Positions 2,327-20,805 are shown, counted from the first letter of the stretch. The stretch is DNA of 22,227 nt from an uncultured virus (IMG/VR IMGVR_UViG_2930745263_000001) (IMGVR_UViG_2930745263_000001), one strand, 5' to 3'. Numbers and translations are program-made. Notes: generated from the letters alone by a model not told the origin.

Positions 2327-2496
2327 CGGGCACCTTTGCTGGGGTTGGGTCCCTTTGGTCCCTGCCGGTCGTGGGCTGCCTCGGCGCGGAGGTGGTGGCG
2401 TAGGGGGCTGTGGTGGTCGGGGACGGTGGGGTCGAGGATGGCGATGAGGAGCCGCCCGTCGGGGAGACGGGCGGCCACCGTGTTGGTGCTGGTCAT
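2323..2496 (-). CDS. Small hypothetical protein (57 aa, MTSTNTVAARLPDGRLLIAILDP...)
   Basis: Not in the ORF track (<60 aa). ATGA overlaps at both ends fill the gap exactly. Confidence 0.6.
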   Translation of the reverse strand: MTSTNTVAARLPDGRLLIAILDPTVPDHHSPLRHHLRAEAAHDRQGPKGPNPSKGAR

Positions 2497-3011
2497 CGGG
2501 GCAGTTCGTTCCGGGTGCTGGCGATGATGCCGCGGGTGTTGGCGTGGATGCTGCGCTGGTCGACGGCGCCGTTGTAGGTGTTGTGGACGGAGGCCGGCGC
2601 GGCGCCGACGACTTCCTTGGCGCTCTTCACGAGGCTCTTCAGGGCGAGAACGGGAAGGGCGAGAGCGGCAGGGATGCCCACGACGCAGCCACAGACCCAG
2701 GCGATGACCTCAGGGTTGGCGTGGCCGGAGCCCCAGAGGACGGCGGTAGTGGATGCGCCGAGGGCGCCGACGAGGACACTGCTGGTGAGGATGGTGGTGT
2801 TGAGGTCGACGGCGCGCTGGGACATGGGTGGCCGTCCGGGCTGGGGTACGGGTGGGGTATCGCCGATGGCGGGGAGCTTGCTGTCGTCGCGGTGGAAGGT
2901 CGGGGTACGGAAGGCGTCTTCCAAGTCGGCGAGGAAGAGGGTGGCCTGGGCGTTGATGGCGGGCTGCCCGGCCTTGCGGGTGGGCTGCTGGGGGTCGGGC
3001 AGGCGGTTCAC
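2493..3011 (-). CDS. Two-TM membrane protein, probable Spd (plasmid spread)-type accessory
   Basis: Pro-rich N-terminus and two hydrophobic segments; directly downstream of the TraB-like gene; RBS AGGAGA. Confidence 0.7.
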   Translation of the reverse strand: MNRLPDPQQPTRKAGQPAINAQATLFLADLEDAFRTPTFHRDDSKLPAIGDTPPVPQPGRPPMSQRAVDLNTTILTSSVLVGALGASTTAVLWGSGHANPEVIAWVCGCVVGIPAALALPVLALKSLVKSAKEVVGAAPASVHNTYNGAVDQRSIHANTRGIIASTRNELPR

Positions 3012-3083: not shown

Positions 3084-5555
3084 TCAGTTGTCGGGCTGGC
3101 GGAGGACGGGGTGGGAGCCGTCCTCCTGTGCGGCGCCGATGACGCCTTCGGCTTCGAGAGCGCCGAGGAGCGCCTGGGTGAGGTCCCATCCGATGCGGAG
3201 GTTGCGCTGCAGGAACTGGGCGGAGGCCCGCTGCTTGGCGACGACGAGTTCGATCGCGGTCGGCAGGAGTTCGGACAGGGTGGAGTCCTCTGTCTTGTTC
3301 TGCTCGTCCGCGGTGTCGGGCTGGGGTCCGTGGCCGTAGATGCCTTTGGCTTTGCGGTGGAGGCGCCCGGCGGTGACGTCTTTGCTGAGCCAGTTCGTGA
3401 CGACGGTGCGGTCCCAGCCTTCGGGGCCGAACTCCTGGGTGAGGGCGGGCCACAGCTCGCGGGTGTCGAGCCCGTCAAGGCCGGCGGCACGGATGAGGTT
3501 GCGGGCGAAGGTAAGGCGGGGGTCGGTGCGGTCTTCGGGCTGGGTTCGCTTGTAGGAGAGATTGAGGCCGCTGGTGCCGGGCTCGTCGGTGGTGCCGTAC
3601 TCCTGGTCGATCTGTTCCATGAGGCGGGCGGCGAGCTGGTCGGGGTCTTCGTCGGGGAGGGGCTGCTGGCGGCGCTTGTAGGAGAGGTTGAGGCCGCCGC
3701 CGGGTTCCTGTGGGGGGCGGGCGGTGCGGGGCGCCTGCGGCTGCTGGACGGTGGTCTGGGCGGGGAGGGTGGGTGCGGCGCCGGGCTCGGGGTCGGTGTA
3801 TTCGGGGGCTCCCCAGAGCCATCCGGCGCGCTCGGGGGTCCATCGCTGGGCGTAGATGTCGCCGCCCGCGGCAGCGGATACCTGGTCGAGGTGGGGGCGG
3901 ATGTCGTTCGTGGCGAGGACGACGTCGCGGACCATGTTGGGGCTGGTGCGCCACGTCTTGAACGGGGTGGGGGCGAAGCCGTCGGCTCCGGCCTGACCGA
4001 TGACGCCGGCCCCCTTCTCGTTGAGCTGGCTGGCGTCGACCTTGACGCTCGAGAACAGCTTGCTGATGTTGCTGGTGACGGACTCGCCGGAGGTAAGGGC
4101 TGCACCGACCGGGGCGAACTTGCGAACCTCGGTGCTGCCGATCGCGGACACGTTGCCGTCGATCGCGGTGAGGACAAGCCGTTCGGCCATGGCGCGGGTG
4201 GTGCGCATGGTCTTCTTGACGGCCTCTTGGAGTTCCTTCATGACGGGGTCGCCGAAGGAGCGTGCGGACAGAAGCTCGGCGCCCTCATCGATGACGACTT
4301 CGATCTGCGGGATGGTGCGGGAGACGGGCAGGAGGGTGGTGTTCGCCGCGTCCATAAGGTCCTGGTAGTGGTGCTGGCGGGCGGCGTTGATCGCGAGGAC
4401 GACGCGCATCATGAGGAGCGCTTCGGCGGGGGTGGAGGCGATCCAGTCGACACCGGGGCGGGTCCCTTCGGGGGCGCGGTCCATGCCTGCGGTCGGCTTC
4501 ACGTGGCCCGCCGATTCGAGCCATGGGCGGGCCCAGGGGCGGCCGACGGCTCCGGCCTTGAGGTCGATGACCCAGGTGACGACGTCTACGCAGCGGGCGA
4601 ACCCGGCGATGATCCCGTCGAGGAATGTGGACTTGCCGGATCCGGGCGGGCCGAGGACGAGGGCGCACGCTTCGCGGAGGTAGACGGTGACGGGCTGGGA
4701 GTTGGGCTGGGAGCCCCACGGGATGCCGGTGAGGATGGACAGGGGGGTGTAGTCGGTGGGGTAGTCGACGATGTCGCCCATGATGTTGACGGTGGTGACG
4801 TCGATGACGACGCGGCCCTGGATGTCGCCTTCTTCGACGTGGACGGTGCAGCCGCGGGGCAGTCGGGCGTCGGCGGCCAGGGCGCGGTGCTTGTCGCGGA
4901 TGGTGGTCCAGACGGCGGCGCCGGGGAGTTCTCCGGCGATGGAGTATCCGGCCCCGTTCTTCCACTGCTCGACGGCGAAGACTTTCACGTCGAGGCGGGT
5001 GACGCGCAGGAGTCGGTCGTGCCATTCGTTGGCGATGGCGCGGCGACCGGCGTCGAGTTCTTGGGCGAGCTGGCGGGCTTCGGCGGTGAGGCGTTCGTCT
5101 TCGGCGACTTCTTCGTGCATGGCTGCGTTGGAGGCCATGGCGCCGATGCCGACTCCGATGCCGGTGAGGGTCCCTGCGGCGACCCAGGTGAGGGGGCCGG
5201 TGGTCATGGCCCAGGTGGTCCAGCCGCCGGCGAGGAGCCAGGAGGCGGCACGGGTGACGCCGGTGCGGGCGGTGAGGCGGCGGAAGACACTGTGGCCGAT
5301 GCCGTGGCCGAGGGCTCCTGCTGTTCCGATGAGGAGGGGCAGGGTGTCGGGCATGCCGGTGGCGGTGCCGAGGAGGGCGGTGGCGTAGGCGCCGGTTGTG
5401 GCGGATACGGCGCCGGTGATGGGTCCGTGGGAGGCGGCCCAGTCGAGCGGGGGGAGCCGGGACTGGTTCTTGGTGGTCTTTCTCGGGGTGGGGGTTTTCG
5501 TGGTGTCGGCGGGCGGGGGTGTGTTGGTGAGGTAGAGGCGCTGGGGCTCGGTCAT
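3084..5555 (-). CDS. traB: TraB-type FtsK/SpoIIIE conjugative dsDNA translocase
   Basis: N-terminal TM segments, Walker A GPPGSGKS, WVIDLK, Walker B VVIDEGAELL, C-terminal wHTH plus FtsK-gamma-like domain (SAQFLQRNLRIGW...LEAEGVIG); RBS AAGGAC. Confidence 0.88.
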   Translation of the reverse strand: MTEPQRLYLTNTPPPADTTKTPTPRKTTKNQSRLPPLDWAASHGPITGAVSATTGAYATALLGTATGMPDTLPLLIGTAGALGHGIGHSVFRRLTARTGVTRAASWLLAGGWTTWAMTTGPLTWVAAGTLTGIGVGIGAMASNAAMHEEVAEDERLTAEARQLAQELDAGRRAIANEWHDRLLRVTRLDVKVFAVEQWKNGAGYSIAGELPGAAVWTTIRDKHRALAADARLPRGCTVHVEEGDIQGRVVIDVTTVNIMGDIVDYPTDYTPLSILTGIPWGSQPNSQPVTVYLREACALVLGPPGSGKSTFLDGIIAGFARCVDVVTWVIDLKAGAVGRPWARPWLESAGHVKPTAGMDRAPEGTRPGVDWIASTPAEALLMMRVVLAINAARQHHYQDLMDAANTTLLPVSRTIPQIEVVIDEGAELLSARSFGDPVMKELQEAVKKTMRTTRAMAERLVLTAIDGNVSAIGSTEVRKFAPVGAALTSGESVTSNISKLFSSVKVDASQLNEKGAGVIGQAGADGFAPTPFKTWRTSPNMVRDVVLATNDIRPHLDQVSAAAGGDIYAQRWTPERAGWLWGAPEYTDPEPGAAPTLPAQTTVQQPQAPRTARPPQEPGGGLNLSYKRRQQPLPDEDPDQLAARLMEQIDQEYGTTDEPGTSGLNLSYKRTQPEDRTDPRLTFARNLIRAAGLDGLDTRELWPALTQEFGPEGWDRTVVTNWLSKDVTAGRLHRKAKGIYGHGPQPDTADEQNKTEDSTLSELLPTAIELVVAKQRASAQFLQRNLRIGWDLTQALLGALEAEGVIGAAQEDGSHPVLRQPDN

Positions 5556-7376: not shown

Positions 7377-7523
7377 TGTTGTTGGCCCTGTTGTTGGCGC
7401 CTTGTTGTTCGGGGTGTTGTTGCCTTGTTGTTGGCGTTGTTTCCCCTGTTCAGAGGGGGTACAGGGCCCCTCCGGCCGAGCGATCGACCGTTCTCACCGT
7501 GGGCAACAACACCGCCAACAACA
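7377..7523. repeat. Cluster of TGTTGTT(G) repeats: five direct plus two inverted copies; candidate clt (cis-acting locus of transfer)
   Basis: TGTTGTT at 7377, 7389, 7403, 7415, 7426, a degenerate copy at ~7435, and inverted CAACAACA at 7504 and 7516, all within the intergenic gap 7329-7534. Confidence 0.75.
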
Positions 7524-7534
7524 GGCACACACCG

Positions 7535-7714
7535 TCACGGAACGGGGTGGCGGGGGCGCAGCCCTTCGATGTGACGGAGGGCCGCGGCGAGCTCCTCCTG
7601 AACCTGCTGCATGTCGAGGTCCAGGGGCGTCTCAGCAGCGCCCGGGAGGGCGTCGACTCCGCGGGTGCGGATGTCGGGGCTGGTGAACTGCGACGGGGCC
7701 AGAGTGGGGTTCAT
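7535..7714 (-). CDS. Small hypothetical protein (59 aa, MNPTLAPSQFTSPD...QEELAAALRHIEGLRP)
   Basis: TGATG overlap with the upstream gene stop; GC3-rich codons; not in the track (<60 aa). Confidence 0.6.
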   Translation of the reverse strand: MNPTLAPSQFTSPDIRTRGVDALPGAAETPLDLDMQQVQEELAAALRHIEGLRPRHPVP

Positions 7715-8901
7715 CAGTCGTCACTTCCGTTGCGGGACTTCTCGAAGGCGGCGTGCATTTCGTTGTAGAGCTCGCGGAGGGTCTGGTCGGTCTCGCCGTA
7801 TCCGAGCTCGCGCCACTTCTTGATGAAGGCGCGCTGGGAGGGCTGGCCGAGGTCGGCGTAGACGCGGAAGGCTCGTGCCTTTCGCTCGGCTTCGGTTGCT
7901 GCGGGGTTCGAACGCGGCTGCGGCTTCTCGTCGTGCGGCTCGATCGTGTCTTCGGCTTGGCTGGAGGGTGCGGCTCCGGAAGCCGCGCTGGTCAGCGGCA
8001 TGTTGCCAAGCGGAGAGGCTGCGTCCAGATTGTGCGGTCCGTTGTTCGAACGCACTCCCTGCATGACGGCGGTTTCGAAGTGGCCGCCGCCGAGCTGCAT
8101 GCCCTTCTCGAAGGCGATCCGGTCGACAAGGTGGGCTTCGGTCATCTGCCGCTCGAAGCCTTCGAGGCCGTGGAGGGCGGCTCGGCCGGCGCGGACGAGG
8201 GCGCGGCGGTACCGGCGGTCGCTCATGAACCTGGGCTTGCCAACCGAGTTCAGGTCGACGAACCGGTCGGCGGCGTTGCTGCGGCTGATGGCTTCGGCGT
8301 CGGCGCCGCGGGAGCCGATGCCGAGCTTGGACTCGAGGCGCTTGAGGCGGTCGCGCCAGGCGCGGGCGAGGATGCCGTCGGACTTGATCTCGATCTTCTT
8401 GAGCTTGGTCTCAAGCCCCAGGAGCTTGTGGAGGCCGTAGGCGAGCATGACGGGTCCGACGATGCGGACGGCTGCGGTGCCGAGGTCTTCGTTCTGGAAC
8501 CTGACGACTTCGATGGCGCCGATGGCCTGGGCGAGTACGAGGAAGTAGGCGGCGCGTGCGGTGCCCTTGTCCTCGAAGGCCCAGGAGTAGAGCGTGAGGC
8601 CGAGGACGATGCCTTCGAGGGCGAGGCCAACGGTGAGGGTCCACGGGGACTGCATGTGGAGTCGGGCTTCGGCGAAGACGATGGAGGTGTTGGCGGAGAG
8701 TCCGAAGCCGAGGAGGACGACGAGGCCCATGCCGAGGAAGCCGGTGAGGGTGCGTCGCTTCTTGGGGTCGTGGGGCTTCTTGGTGCGGGGGGTGCGCTTC
8801 TGGGCGATGCGGTGGCCGAAGGTGAGGGTGAGGAGGGCGAGGAGGACGGCCCATGCCTGGACGGGCACCTGCTCGACCGCGGTCTGCACTGTGGAGAGCA
8901 T
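7714..8901 (-). CDS. Multi-TM SpdB2-like (DUF2637-type) spread protein
   Basis: Five hydrophobic segments in the N-terminal half, basic helical region, C-terminal HTH-like segment (PSQRAFIKKWRELGYG); RBS GAAAGGA; located in the tra operon. Confidence 0.7.
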   Translation of the reverse strand: MLSTVQTAVEQVPVQAWAVLLALLTLTFGHRIAQKRTPRTKKPHDPKKRRTLTGFLGMGLVVLLGFGLSANTSIVFAEARLHMQSPWTLTVGLALEGIVLGLTLYSWAFEDKGTARAAYFLVLAQAIGAIEVVRFQNEDLGTAAVRIVGPVMLAYGLHKLLGLETKLKKIEIKSDGILARAWRDRLKRLESKLGIGSRGADAEAISRSNAADRFVDLNSVGKPRFMSDRRYRRALVRAGRAALHGLEGFERQMTEAHLVDRIAFEKGMQLGGGHFETAVMQGVRSNNGPHNLDAASPLGNMPLTSAASGAAPSSQAEDTIEPHDEKPQPRSNPAATEAERKARAFRVYADLGQPSQRAFIKKWRELGYGETDQTLRELYNEMHAAFEKSRNGSDD

Positions 8902-11253: not shown

Positions 11254-12021
11254 GTGACTCAGACCGAGATCGTCAAGGCGCTCACGAACGCGATCGACCA
11301 GGGCGCCTACAAGTACGGAGACCGTCTGCCGACCACGCGCGAGCTGGCCGACAAGTACGGGACCAGCCAGCAGACCGTCGCGTCAGCGCTGGCAAGAATG
11401 GCCAACATGGGCTTGGTGCAAGTCCAGCGAGGCTGGGGAGCGCGAGTCATCGCGGGGAAGCCCCCGAAGATCAAGCTCGGCACCTATCGGTCGGCGAACC
11501 GTGAGATCGCGACCAGCACGACCGCATGGAAGCGCGACAACGGGAACGGCTCCAAGGAGGGCCCGACCCAGGTCAGCCAGACCGTAACCATCGAGGACGA
11601 CACGGACACCGGCATCCCGGCCGGCATCGAGGTCGTCGAGAGGAGCCGTACGCGGTTCGACGCAGATGGAGCCCCTTGCCAGCACAAGCGAACGCTGGTG
11701 ACCGTCGCGGCGGCCACGCTGACCCCTGAGGGGTGGACTGGCCTTCCGCCCATGATGAGCCCGGCGGACATCACCCCGCCCGGAGGGCAGAGCATCGCCC
11801 GCTGGTTGGGAATGGGCGTCGAACAGATCACCTACGAGGTCACGGTCACGGCGGCCACCGGGTCGGCAGCAGCAGCCCTCGGACTGCCAGAAGACACGCC
11901 GTGCCTTCGCATCGTTTCCCGAGGGGCGAAGGCGGACGGAGAGGTCGCGTACGCCACAGTGACGACCGCTCCGCTCCGCAGTTCGGTTTCGTGGGAAATC
12001 CGAGACGACGGAGTGGGGTGA
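11254..12021 (+). CDS. GntR/HutC-family repressor with UTRA-like domain (TraR/KorA/KorSA-like)
   Basis: N-terminal GDRLPTTRELADKYGTSQQTVASALARMANMGLV..QRGWGARV wHTH; C-terminal AAALGLPEDTPCLRIVS; RBS AAGGAGG; divergent from the tra operon. Confidence 0.88.
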   Translation: MTQTEIVKALTNAIDQGAYKYGDRLPTTRELADKYGTSQQTVASALARMANMGLVQVQRGWGARVIAGKPPKIKLGTYRSANREIATSTTAWKRDNGNGSKEGPTQVSQTVTIEDDTDTGIPAGIEVVERSRTRFDADGAPCQHKRTLVTVAAATLTPEGWTGLPPMMSPADITPPGGQSIARWLGMGVEQITYEVTVTAATGSAAAALGLPEDTPCLRIVSRGAKADGEVAYATVTTAPLRSSVSWEIRDDGVG

Positions 12022-12675: not shown

Positions 12676-12756
12676 GTGCTGAGGGTACCCGTAGCAGTCC
12701 ACACCATCGCAAGTGCACGCTCCGTGATCGTCCGCATGGCGGGGGTGACGGCATGA
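12676..12756 (+). CDS. Putative 26-aa leader peptide coupled to the rep gene (MLRVPVAVHTIASARSVIVRMAGVTA)
   Basis: GAAAGGCGAGG upstream of the GTG; its stop overlaps the rep ATG (ATGA at 12753-12756). Confidence 0.45.
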   Translation: MLRVPVAVHTIASARSVIVRMAGVTA

Positions 12757-14297
12757 GCATCAACCGACGCCGCCCCTCGAACCAGCACCGCCCCATCGTG
12801 AGCCGTCCTGGCTCGACCGGTCTTCGCTTCGGCATGTTCGCCGTATGCGTGACGCGCGACTCCGATTCGGACCTCAACAAGGGCAAGGCCAAGCCGCTGT
12901 ACGAGCTGCTGATCACCTTCGCGGACGTCAGCTCTCGGGACACCGGTCAGGGATACCCGTACCGCGAAACCCTGGCCACATGTCTGGACTGCTCCAAGCA
13001 GACCATTGACCGGGCCGCCGACTACCTCGAGAAGGAGATCGGCCTGGTGAAAGTCCACCGCCGGAAGGTGGAAGGCAAGCCGGACGAGAACGACGCGAAC
13101 CTGTACGAAATCTTCGACGCGTGGCTGATCCACGGCGCGACTCCGCCGGCAGGCACTCCTCCGCAGCTGGTCGCCCGGTACGGCCACACGGTCCCCGGCC
13201 TGGACATCGACGCGTGGGTCAGCAAGAACGCCCCAGACTTCGACCTGGCGGCTTGGAGAGCGGCCTACAACGCGAAGGCGGGCGCCCAGGAGGCCAAGCG
13301 CGAGGAGCAGCGACGCAAGGAACGTGCCCGCCGGAAGAAGGCGAGGAAGGGGGGTGACGTCACCTGTGACGCCACCTCTGAGGGTGGCCAAGAGGCGGGG
13401 GGTAGCGTCACCCATGACGCGTCCCGTGACGTCATGGGTGACGCGTCCGGTGGCGTCACGGATGACGCCCTATCTAGAGCCGGTCTTCCAGAGTCTTCTT
13501 CTACAGACAGTGATGCGCTTTCAGCGCGTAGCGCTGGTGACGCCCGCAGGGCATCTGCAGGTATCAGTACGCCTGCGCGCGAAGGCGGCTCCGCCGCGTC
13601 CGGCAAGACCAGCCCCTCCCCCACACCGAACGACGACACCCGCGGGCCGGCTCGAGGGCCCAAGGGCAGCAGCAAGAAGGCAGCCCACACCAGGGCACAG
13701 CTCGACGTCGTCCGCCGGGTGCGGGCGTTCTACCCGCCGGAGATCCGCGAGCAGCTGCCGGAGCTGCCTGCCATCTCGGAAGCCATCTTGTCGACCATGG
13801 CGAAGGAGGGCCGCACGGTGGAACAGATGGGCCAGCGAATCTTGTCGCGGTGGGTGGGCCACAACTACGCGGCAAAGTTCGCGGCCGGCGAGCTGGTGAA
13901 CGTGGTGGGTGCGGCGATCGGCATGGTGCGCCCGCTGGTGCCGGGTGACCGGTACGCGTGTTCGGACGTTCGGTGTGAGGACGGGGTTCTTGACGGGGAG
14001 CCGTGCCGGTTGTGTGCGGTTCGGATCGCCGACTGGGAGGCTGCGCGGTCCCGTGAGCGGGCCCAGGGGCTTCCTGTGGGCGCGAACTCGGCTCCGGTGG
14101 CCGCCGGTTCGCCTGAGCCCGCGCTGCCGCCTCAGAGGGCCGTTGCGCCGGATGCGCCGGAGAGGGCGCAGTGCGGCGGCAAGGGCGGCACCTGCACTAC
14201 CGGGCTGACGTCGTGGCAGACGCTCTGCTGGGAGTGCTCGGAAGCCGCCGCGGCACAGCACGATCTCGAGAACGCGGGCGCTTCCGCCCCGTTCTGA
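12753..14297 (+). CDS. Phage/plasmid replication initiator with N-terminal HTH and C-terminal Cys clusters
   Basis: AKPLYELLITFAD...YPYRETLATCLDCSKQTIDRAADYLE..GLV..RRK...NDANLY is the HTH_36-type N-terminus of phage initiators; internal iteron array; C-terminal C-x4-C...CxxC and C-x6-C...CxxC. Confidence 0.75.
   Translation: MSINRRRPSNQHRPIVSRPGSTGLRFGMFAVCVTRDSDSDLNKGKAKPLYELLITFADVSSRDTGQGYPYRETLATCLDCSKQTIDRAADYLEKEIGLVKVHRRKVEGKPDENDANLYEIFDAWLIHGATPPAGTPPQLVARYGHTVPGLDIDAWVSKNAPDFDLAAWRAAYNAKAGAQEAKREEQRRKERARRKKARKGGDVTCDATSEGGQEAGGSVTHDASRDVMGDASGGVTDDALSRAGLPESSSTDSDALSARSAGDARRASAGISTPAREGGSAASGKTSPSPTPNDDTRGPARGPKGSSKKAAHTRAQLDVVRRVRAFYPPEIREQLPELPAISEAILSTMAKEGRTVEQMGQRILSRWVGHNYAAKFAAGELVNVVGAAIGMVRPLVPGDRYACSDVRCEDGVLDGEPCRLCAVRIADWEAARSRERAQGLPVGANSAPVAAGSPEPALPPQRAVAPDAPERAQCGGKGGTCTTGLTSWQTLCWECSEAAAAQHDLENAGASAPF
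13354..13469. repeat. Four palindromic iteron-like repeats CGTCA-N4-TGACG inside the rep gene (candidate origin)
   Basis: Copies start at 13358, 13406, 13430 and 13454 (spacing 48, 24, 24 bp). Confidence 0.8.
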
Positions 14298-20328: not shown

Positions 20329-20805
20329 ATGTCCCAGCCCCTGCCCGACGCACTCGTTGACTACTTCGTCCAGCGGAGCGCAGAACGTGCCGACGCCGTC
20401 ACCAAGTTCCTCGGCAACCTCACCGACCGCGAGCGCACCCTGATCCGCGAAGCCGCCGTCATGGGCTACGTCCACGGCCGCCGACACCCGCGCGACGAGG
20501 ACCACCCCAAGGACGCCGCCGTACTCCACCTCGTCGTCGACGCCTGCCTCGCAGCCCCCGACCTGTACCCGGCCATTGCTGCCGTCCACGAGCAGACCAC
20601 CAGCAGCACGCTGAAGTACCTCATCGAGATCCAGCAGCCCGACGGGACGTGGGAGCAGGGCAGCAGCTCCTCGCCCGACCCGGAGTACATCCAGCAGCAG
20701 CTTTCGGTGAAGCGGGCCAAGCATCCCGAGTGCGAGTACCGGATCGCCTGGCGCACCACCACCGTCACCACCGGGCCGATCCCCAGGATCGTTCCCGCCG
20801 CCTGA
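20329..20805 (+). CDS. Hypothetical phage protein (158 aa)
   Basis: RBS GAAGGAG; GC3 bias. Confidence 0.75.
   Translation: MSQPLPDALVDYFVQRSAERADAVTKFLGNLTDRERTLIREAAVMGYVHGRRHPRDEDHPKDAAVLHLVVDACLAAPDLYPAIAAVHEQTTSSTLKYLIEIQQPDGTWEQGSSSSPDPEYIQQQLSVKRAKHPECEYRIAWRTTTVTTGPIPRIVPAA

Follow-up and report, generated by a model that had tools for sequence, protein, structure and literature searches.

TraB is described as a conjugative pump with one winged-helix domain (wHTH) and one DNA signal. The Streptomyces proteins pSVH1 TraB, pWTY27 TraA, pIJ101 Tra and pZL12.71c consist of a membrane segment, an FtsK-like motor and a terminal wHTH, and a clt site lies nearby (PMC3583192 and PMC4447253, in excerpt, as are all sources cited here by PMC number). 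Published clt sites are clusters of direct and inverted 7-9-bp repeats (PMC3583192, PMC4447253). In E. coli, the helix-2/loop surface of FtsK's gamma domain touches both DNA, in the KOPS complex, and XerD (PMC5052618), and the triple mutant R1300A/E1303A/E1306A is blind to KOPS yet supports Xer recombination (PMC2680272). The DNA-contact assignments used here are second-hand. Gamma domains fused to phage proteins or encoded by free phage genes have been published with their role stated as unknown (PMC8190038). The small terminase of Bacillus phages Sam46 and Sam112 is an example of a host-derived gamma on a mobile-element DNA machine, and its DNA-binding residues are reported as conserved (PMC8190038).

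The TraB protein considered here (P0001) is encoded in a 22,227-nucleotide stretch of DNA from an uncultured virus (the window) and has the parts of a Streptomyces TraB plus an extra FtsK gamma domain after the wHTH. In contrast to Sam46/Sam112, the carrier is a conjugation pump and the DNA-binding residues of the TraB gammas are systematically lost. No description of a TraB with an added gamma was found in the literature surveyed, which largely excluded subscription papers; a prior mention is possible.

The traB gene, its surroundings and the candidate clt

P0001 is 26% identical to pZL12.71c and has an N-terminal membrane segment (by sequence), a P-loop motor and a wHTH after the motor, as expected of a TraB (Table 1). 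GPPGSGK is invariant in 15/15 aligned sequences, and Pfam FtsK_SpoIIIE scores 15.9 bits on P0001, which is under the cut-off of 24. A Pro-rich linker joins the motor to the C-terminal domains; its two GLNLSYKR copies bracket a short acidic helix-like segment. A chromosomal septal FtsK would have a high-identity FtsK motor followed directly by gamma, whereas the motor of P0001 is TraB-type and is separated from gamma by a wHTH. For such proteins, the name 'DNA translocase FtsK' in the database appears to follow the gamma match, and caution is needed with this label on Streptomyces plasmids, where it often denotes TraB.

Table 1. Features of the traB locus and its neighbours in the window
Feature	Position	Strand	Remarks
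traB-type gene (P0001, 823 aa) for a conjugative DNA translocase of the FtsK/SpoIIIE family	3084..5555	-	phrog_31069, E 9e-72
Hydrophobic N-terminal segment, aa 44-145	5121..5426	-	putative membrane anchor, from sequence
Motor	4284..4652	-	Walker A GPPGSGKS 4629-4652; Walker B-like EVVIDE 4284-4301
Linker with two GLNLSYKR motifs	3546..3695	-	motifs at 3672-3695 and 3546-3569, kept across the family
wHTH1, aa 679-742	3330..3521	-	helix 3 RTVVTNWL; net charge +3; putative clt-repeat reader
Appended FtsK gamma domain, aa 759-820	3096..3281	-	net charge -2 (host gamma +3)
Gamma helix 3, WDLTQALLGALE	3150..3188	-	lacks the host K/R/D
Lys-rich traA-like gene, 573 aa	5607..7328	-	immediately upstream of traB; assigned to the pZL12.72c slot from its position alone
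Membrane-protein gene in spread-gene slot	7714..8901	-	75% to pZL12.73c
Gene downstream of traB	2493..3011	-	43% to pZL12.70c; phrog_19266
Divergent GntR/UTRA regulator	11254..12021	+	TraR/KorA type by position
Candidate clt, CAACAACA array	7377..7523	.	upstream of the traA-like gene

The surroundings contain the GntR regulator, spread genes and clt-like repeat array of a tra operon. The gene order is that of pZL12: GntR regulator, small genes, pZL12.73c-like gene, long traA-like gene, traB and pZL12.70c-like gene. Thirty-one Streptomyces plasmid records match the window DNA, and most of the top-ranking ones are 88-102 kb in size. In the one matched plasmid that was inspected, terminase and capsid genes adjoin the matched stretch; the window ends before such genes. 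The plasmid matches and the gene order suggest that the element is a pZL12-like Streptomyces phage-plasmid, with P0001 as its putative conjugative dsDNA pump (TraB).

Other repeats are also present in the window. GTGACGC-type 12/24-bp tandem repeats occur at 13354-13468, inside a probable replication gene (12753-14297), and similar GCGTCAC repeats occur in loci L008, L009 and L011. Four CAGCAGC repeats are found at 20600-20700 with a spacing of 29-31 bp. The matching region of three sibling phage-plasmids of ~90 kb (H169, H175 and H179) carries the annotation 'type IV secretory system conjugative DNA transfer family protein', which suggests that the transfer module can be exchanged.

The first C-terminal domain, wHTH1, is the ordinary terminal wHTH of the family; homologues that have no gamma stop right after it. 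The search with wHTH1 alone returned no plasmid match, no Pfam family and no Atlas feature match. The array upstream of the traA-like gene has four exact direct copies of CAACAACA (five if one mismatch is allowed), spaced 11-14 bp (7377-7433), followed by an inverted pair at 7504 and 7516. There are six matches to the unit against 0.36 expected, all within the array, and 0/100 shuffles reach six. The layout is the same as that of the CGACAAG arrays of relatives, including L113, which suggests that this array is the clt of the element and, by analogy, that wHTH1 may bind it. A CGACAAG array directly follows traB in 19/20 loci with a TVVGWL-type helix and in 0/10 loci with other helices, a tally over the 30 best loci among the 92 matches to the family that 401 Streptomyces genomes contain; these elements are related rather than independent. 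The wHTH1 type thus covaries with the adjacent array in the gamma-less relatives. Tandem CAACAACA was seen in 0/90 other loci, none of which offers the upstream DNA of a relative with the same wHTH1 type. In the two closest loci the upstream sequence is missing. The blastn matches to plasmids do not cover the array, and metagenome scans for relatives with it returned nothing or distant loci only.

A single TraB motor family has several wHTH types with differing repeats downstream of traB (L004-L020, L096-L125), the units being CGACAAG, CCCACTA/CCCAGTA, GGCAGTA and CCATACA. Such pairings of wHTH type and repeat unit would amount to a naturally occurring code for the specificity of each TraB towards its clt. 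Four loci (L001, L002, L003 and L089) have a direct or inverted repeat feature of their own upstream of the traA-like gene, which is the slot of the candidate clt in the window.

Fold, residue pattern and selection of the gamma domain

An AlphaFold2 prediction of aa 670-823, based on an input alignment of 32 sequences, gives two separate domains of three helices and a hairpin (mean pLDDT 80.6, pTM 0.42). The earlier note had claimed two tandem C-terminal wHTHs, the second FtsK gamma-like; both peptides lie within the traB frame and the prediction bears the claim out. The second domain matches Pfam FtsK_gamma (PF09397) over aa 761-818 with 44.5 bits against a cut-off of 30.6. Its predicted structure is closest to 2VE8, the FtsK gamma of P. 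aeruginosa (Z 11.6, rmsd 1.8, 65 aligned), and its top Foldseek match is E. coli gamma (2J5P, rmsd 1.2). The first domain, as modelled, resembles generic wHTHs (best Z 9.0, rmsd 2.2, 63 aligned). The second domain is therefore a true FtsK gamma by profile and fold. It agrees with the known gamma subdomains (2J5P, 2VE8/2VE9, 5DCF) in fold, at an rmsd of 1.2-1.8 A, and in the helix-2/loop surface S..QR..R(I/V)G. It differs from them in that it follows another wHTH in a protein with a TraB motor and is without the equivalents of R1297, R1300 and E1303 and the wing arginine. An origin of the gamma as a duplicate of wHTH1 was rejected, as BLASTP shows no similarity between the two domains.

The recognition helix of the gamma is altered, as the same note had proposed, and the basic residues of the host type are gone. 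The note described the change as YNRAAR replaced by WDLTQA. WDLTQA is present in P0001, but YNRAAR is the wrong baseline because the actinobacterial host motif reads FAKAGR and is essentially invariant as GFAKAGR in the FtsKs inspected. The TraB gamma derives from an actinobacterial FtsK of this type.

Among 27 TraB gammas (non-redundant at 85%; E. coli numbering), S1283 is kept in 26 and Q1288, R1289 and R1292 in all 27, but K1297 is kept in only four and R1300 in only six. Profile-based detection favours QRxxR, so that the conservation of this motif is partly built in and inflated. Both basic helix-3 residues are present in 0/39 TraB gammas compared to 15/15 FtsKs, a set that leaves out one redundant FtsK copy and most of 30 host loci. 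The mean charge of helix 3 is -1.3 in the TraB gammas and +1 in the FtsKs. P0001 keeps S778, Q783, R784 and R787, while L792, A795 and G798 occupy the positions of R1297, R1300 and E1303. At the positions associated with KOPS reading in E. coli (R1300, E1303 and E1306) it has A795, G798 and E801, so that it departs from E. coli at two of the three sites altered in the KOPS-blind mutant. The wing arginine, kept in 20/27 TraB gammas, is replaced by H. Five of the six residues in the XerD-contact set (Q1288, R1289, R1292, I1293, G1294 and N1296) are kept, the exception being N1296, which is D. The gamma of P0001 is among the most eroded copies.

Pooled dN/dS over seven pairs is 0.26 for helices 1-2 and the loop and 0.83 for helix 3 (Fisher p 0.003). 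Synonymous sites are near saturation at a GC3 of 0.9 and the ratios are inflated (distant motor pairs give dN/dS of about or above 1), which leaves the difference between segments as the one meaningful result. Between the window and L001, pN/pS is 0.15/0.41 in helices 1-2 and 0.33/0.25 in helix 3. Host gamma pairs have no amino-acid change in helix 3 in two of three cases. The gammas of P0002-P0004 are 77-92% identical to that of P0001 and the adjoining linker is 25-56% identical, while helix 3 of P0002-P0007 ranges from 33 to 92% identity to that of P0001. In each lineage helix 3 is scrambled in a different way, and its evolution is near-neutral relative to helices 1-2.

Distribution of gamma among TraB proteins

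The tandem arrangement is not the norm, in agreement with the earlier note. Gamma is found on 13 of the 120 best TraB homologues (six of the 13 are partial) and is not present in the transfer proteins of pIJ101, SLP2, pZL12.71c and pSG5, the four known proteins compared. In the 401 Streptomyces genomes, 8/92 family matches coincide with gamma-bearing ORFs. All 13 carriers among the best homologues are on contigs of up to 177 kb, and 0/24 homologues on contigs larger than 300 kb have a gamma. This suggests that gamma is linked to free plasmids, although the tally ignores relatedness. A viral scan with aa 670-823 returned no match.

Gamma carriers fall in four places of the motor tree, which uses 82/115 motors. 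The motor of P0007 is 79% identical to those of the gamma-less P0015/P0016 and 73% identical to that of P0005, but its tail is 90% identical to the tail of P0005. Similarly, the L001 protein and P0006 are 27% identical in the motor and 76% in gamma. The 39 gamma-bearing TraBs make up eight motor groups at 40% identity, two of which have an N-terminal gamma. The backbone of the gamma tree is weak and does not fix the number of independent captures. One of the N-terminal cases, the TraB-like protein of pFP1 (NC_006912) with its relatives, also combines a TraB motor with a captured actinobacterial gamma of altered helix 3; it differs from P0001 in its unrelated motor group and in the location of gamma ahead of the membrane segments.

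Extra PF09397 matches occur in 25 of the 401 genomes, with 26 matches in total (one genome flagged as unpublished, G135, contributes one match, which has no bearing on the result). The 19 matches that were classified comprise ten C-terminal and three N-terminal TraB gammas, three whole FtsKs, two free small ORFs and one weak other match; of the seven left out, three are in very long frames, one is in a frame of 35 aa and three score under the cut-off. Both free gamma ORFs are located 1-2.5 kb from a traB. Twelve plasmid regions, chosen from the 60 plasmid matches listed for 422 records, contain six TraB-gammas (including the N-terminal gamma of pFP1) and six FtsKs proper. Gamma is a recurrent module, a point absent from the earlier note, and is found as a C-terminal domain, an N-terminal domain (pFP1) or a free gene and on unrelated TraBs. 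The two-headed TraB of the window is real and is one member of this module, in which the recognition helix is systematically lost.

The free gamma ORFs lie in tra operons (L079, 3669-4193, plus strand; L083, minus strand, near traB) and each is without one of the two basic helix-3 residues. Large actinomycete plasmids or small contigs (L028, L030, L031, L032, L070 and L071) carry whole FtsK copies, whose gamma, in contrast to that of the TraBs, has an intact helix 3 of the host type. Gamma domains are also encoded inside actinophage genes that bear the annotation sliding clamp or RusA-like resolvase (phage matches H111, H115 and H120), and many unnamed proteins (P0123-P0272) carry 2-4 gamma-like stretches.

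Possible roles of the gamma domain

The best explanation is that gamma acts as a recognition-blind accessory grip, a sequence-blind tether on DNA that would leave specificity with wHTH1 and clt; this is put forward tentatively, with a little less than an even chance of being correct. In this reading wHTH1, like its counterparts in other TraBs, would read the clt repeats of the element (the candidate CAACAACA array). The gamma was captured from an actinobacterial FtsK and passed as a cassette between large extrachromosomal elements, losing the sequence-reading residues of helix 3 and retaining the helix-2/loop QRxxR surface. The extra heads of the hexamer could grip the DNA backbone near the pore and help to load or hold a large replicon with no second signal added. 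The sequence specificity most likely stays with wHTH1 and clt, and the TraB-borne gammas probably aid grip or docking and not the reading of a second DNA signal. Since the gamma fold and QRxxR are kept, helix 3 is freed, and either end or a separate gene is tolerated, grip or docking fits better than a second code, decay or Xer activation. The lost wing arginine and net charge of -2 in P0001 count against a non-specific grip on DNA, as the affinity may be negligible. In E. coli, XerD too is bound by the QRxxR surface (PMC5052618), so a protein partner would explain the conservation of this surface just as well.

Such a partner could be a host FtsK partner or a protein of the element bound by the QRxxR(I/V)G surface, which would bring TraB, and the plasmid with it, to septa or cross-walls and serve spore segregation and intramycelial spreading. 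This docking role is possible but unlikely. The kept residues Q1288, R1289, R1292, I1293 and G1294 belong to the E. coli XerD-contact set, although in the KOPS complex it is DNA that they touch (PMC5052618, Table 1 for the former). The acidic gamma of P0001, the occurrence of the module at either terminus or free, and the whole FtsK copies on large plasmids are consistent with docking, as is a host gamma that is nearly invariant in Streptomyces, though no XerC/D scored over the cut-off in five genomes. A more specific activation of an XerD-like tyrosine recombinase, resolving plasmid dimers during transfer, would agree with the kept XerD-contact residues and the lost KOPS residues, and a 9-aa peptide from the region is enough for activation in E. 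coli (PMC5052618). It is nevertheless most improbable: XerD or XerC over the cut-off was found in 0/5 Streptomyces genomes, and TraB-gamma is also found on linear plasmids (L003, L029, L033 and L034).

The earlier note proposed dual specificity, or else a gamma that was repurposed or decayed. With dual specificity, gamma would read a new motif of the element or a KOPS-like motif of the host, resulting in oriented pumping or chromosome mobilisation. The fold is intact, members of the local clade share W790 and an acidic residue at position 791, and chromosome mobilisation by TraB is large with an open mechanism (PMC11571958). However, helix 3 varies even between close relatives and is near-neutral. 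None of the 39 TraB gammas keeps the host-type K+R, and this together with the conservation of QRxxR makes a second sequence specificity decidedly unlikely and disfavours plain decay. No second clt-like array for gamma was seen within the window, and the E. coli KOPS is not enriched there (13 vs 9.6 expected; a Streptomyces equivalent of this consensus was not found in the literature surveyed). A gamma acquired by recombination with ftsK and now eroding as a neutral passenger, furthest in the P0001 lineage, has a similarly small likelihood. Its Pfam score compares poorly with the 83-88 of host copies, helix 3 and wing are both altered, and gamma is absent in 107/120 best homologues, including the near relatives P0008 and P0016 on ~88-kb contigs. 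On the other hand, the frame is intact in 10/10 members seen of the AKQ(H/R)AS-type clade, gamma is better conserved than the adjoining linker in P0002-P0004, pN is well below pS in helices 1-2, and recurrent capture in eight motor groups plus a free form is hard to explain without a benefit. Repurposing fits, and the conserved frame and helix-1/2 surface disfavour plain decay, but the strong erosion of the P0001 copy leaves some probability for decay in this one lineage.

Returning to the accessory grip, most TraBs transfer without gamma and therefore any effect of it may be small. This, the minority form and an architecture already visible in public annotation limit the weight of the result. 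By repeatedly losing the recognition helix but retaining QRxxR, these gammas pull apart the domain's two functions. As this happens in a genus whose five sampled genomes showed no XerCD, it points to an undescribed activity. In a broader and rather doubtful proposal, Streptomyces plasmids have repeatedly captured host gamma and stripped it of its sequence-reading helix, and the remaining surface is a portable adaptor to the septal segregation machinery or for clt-free seizure of DNA. If true, large plasmids would gain spore inheritance or high chromosome mobilisation, and a non-Xer partner of actinobacterial FtsK gamma would be indicated. In the natural near-pairs P0001-P0006 vs P0008 and P0007 vs P0015/P0016, the gamma tail is almost the sole difference.
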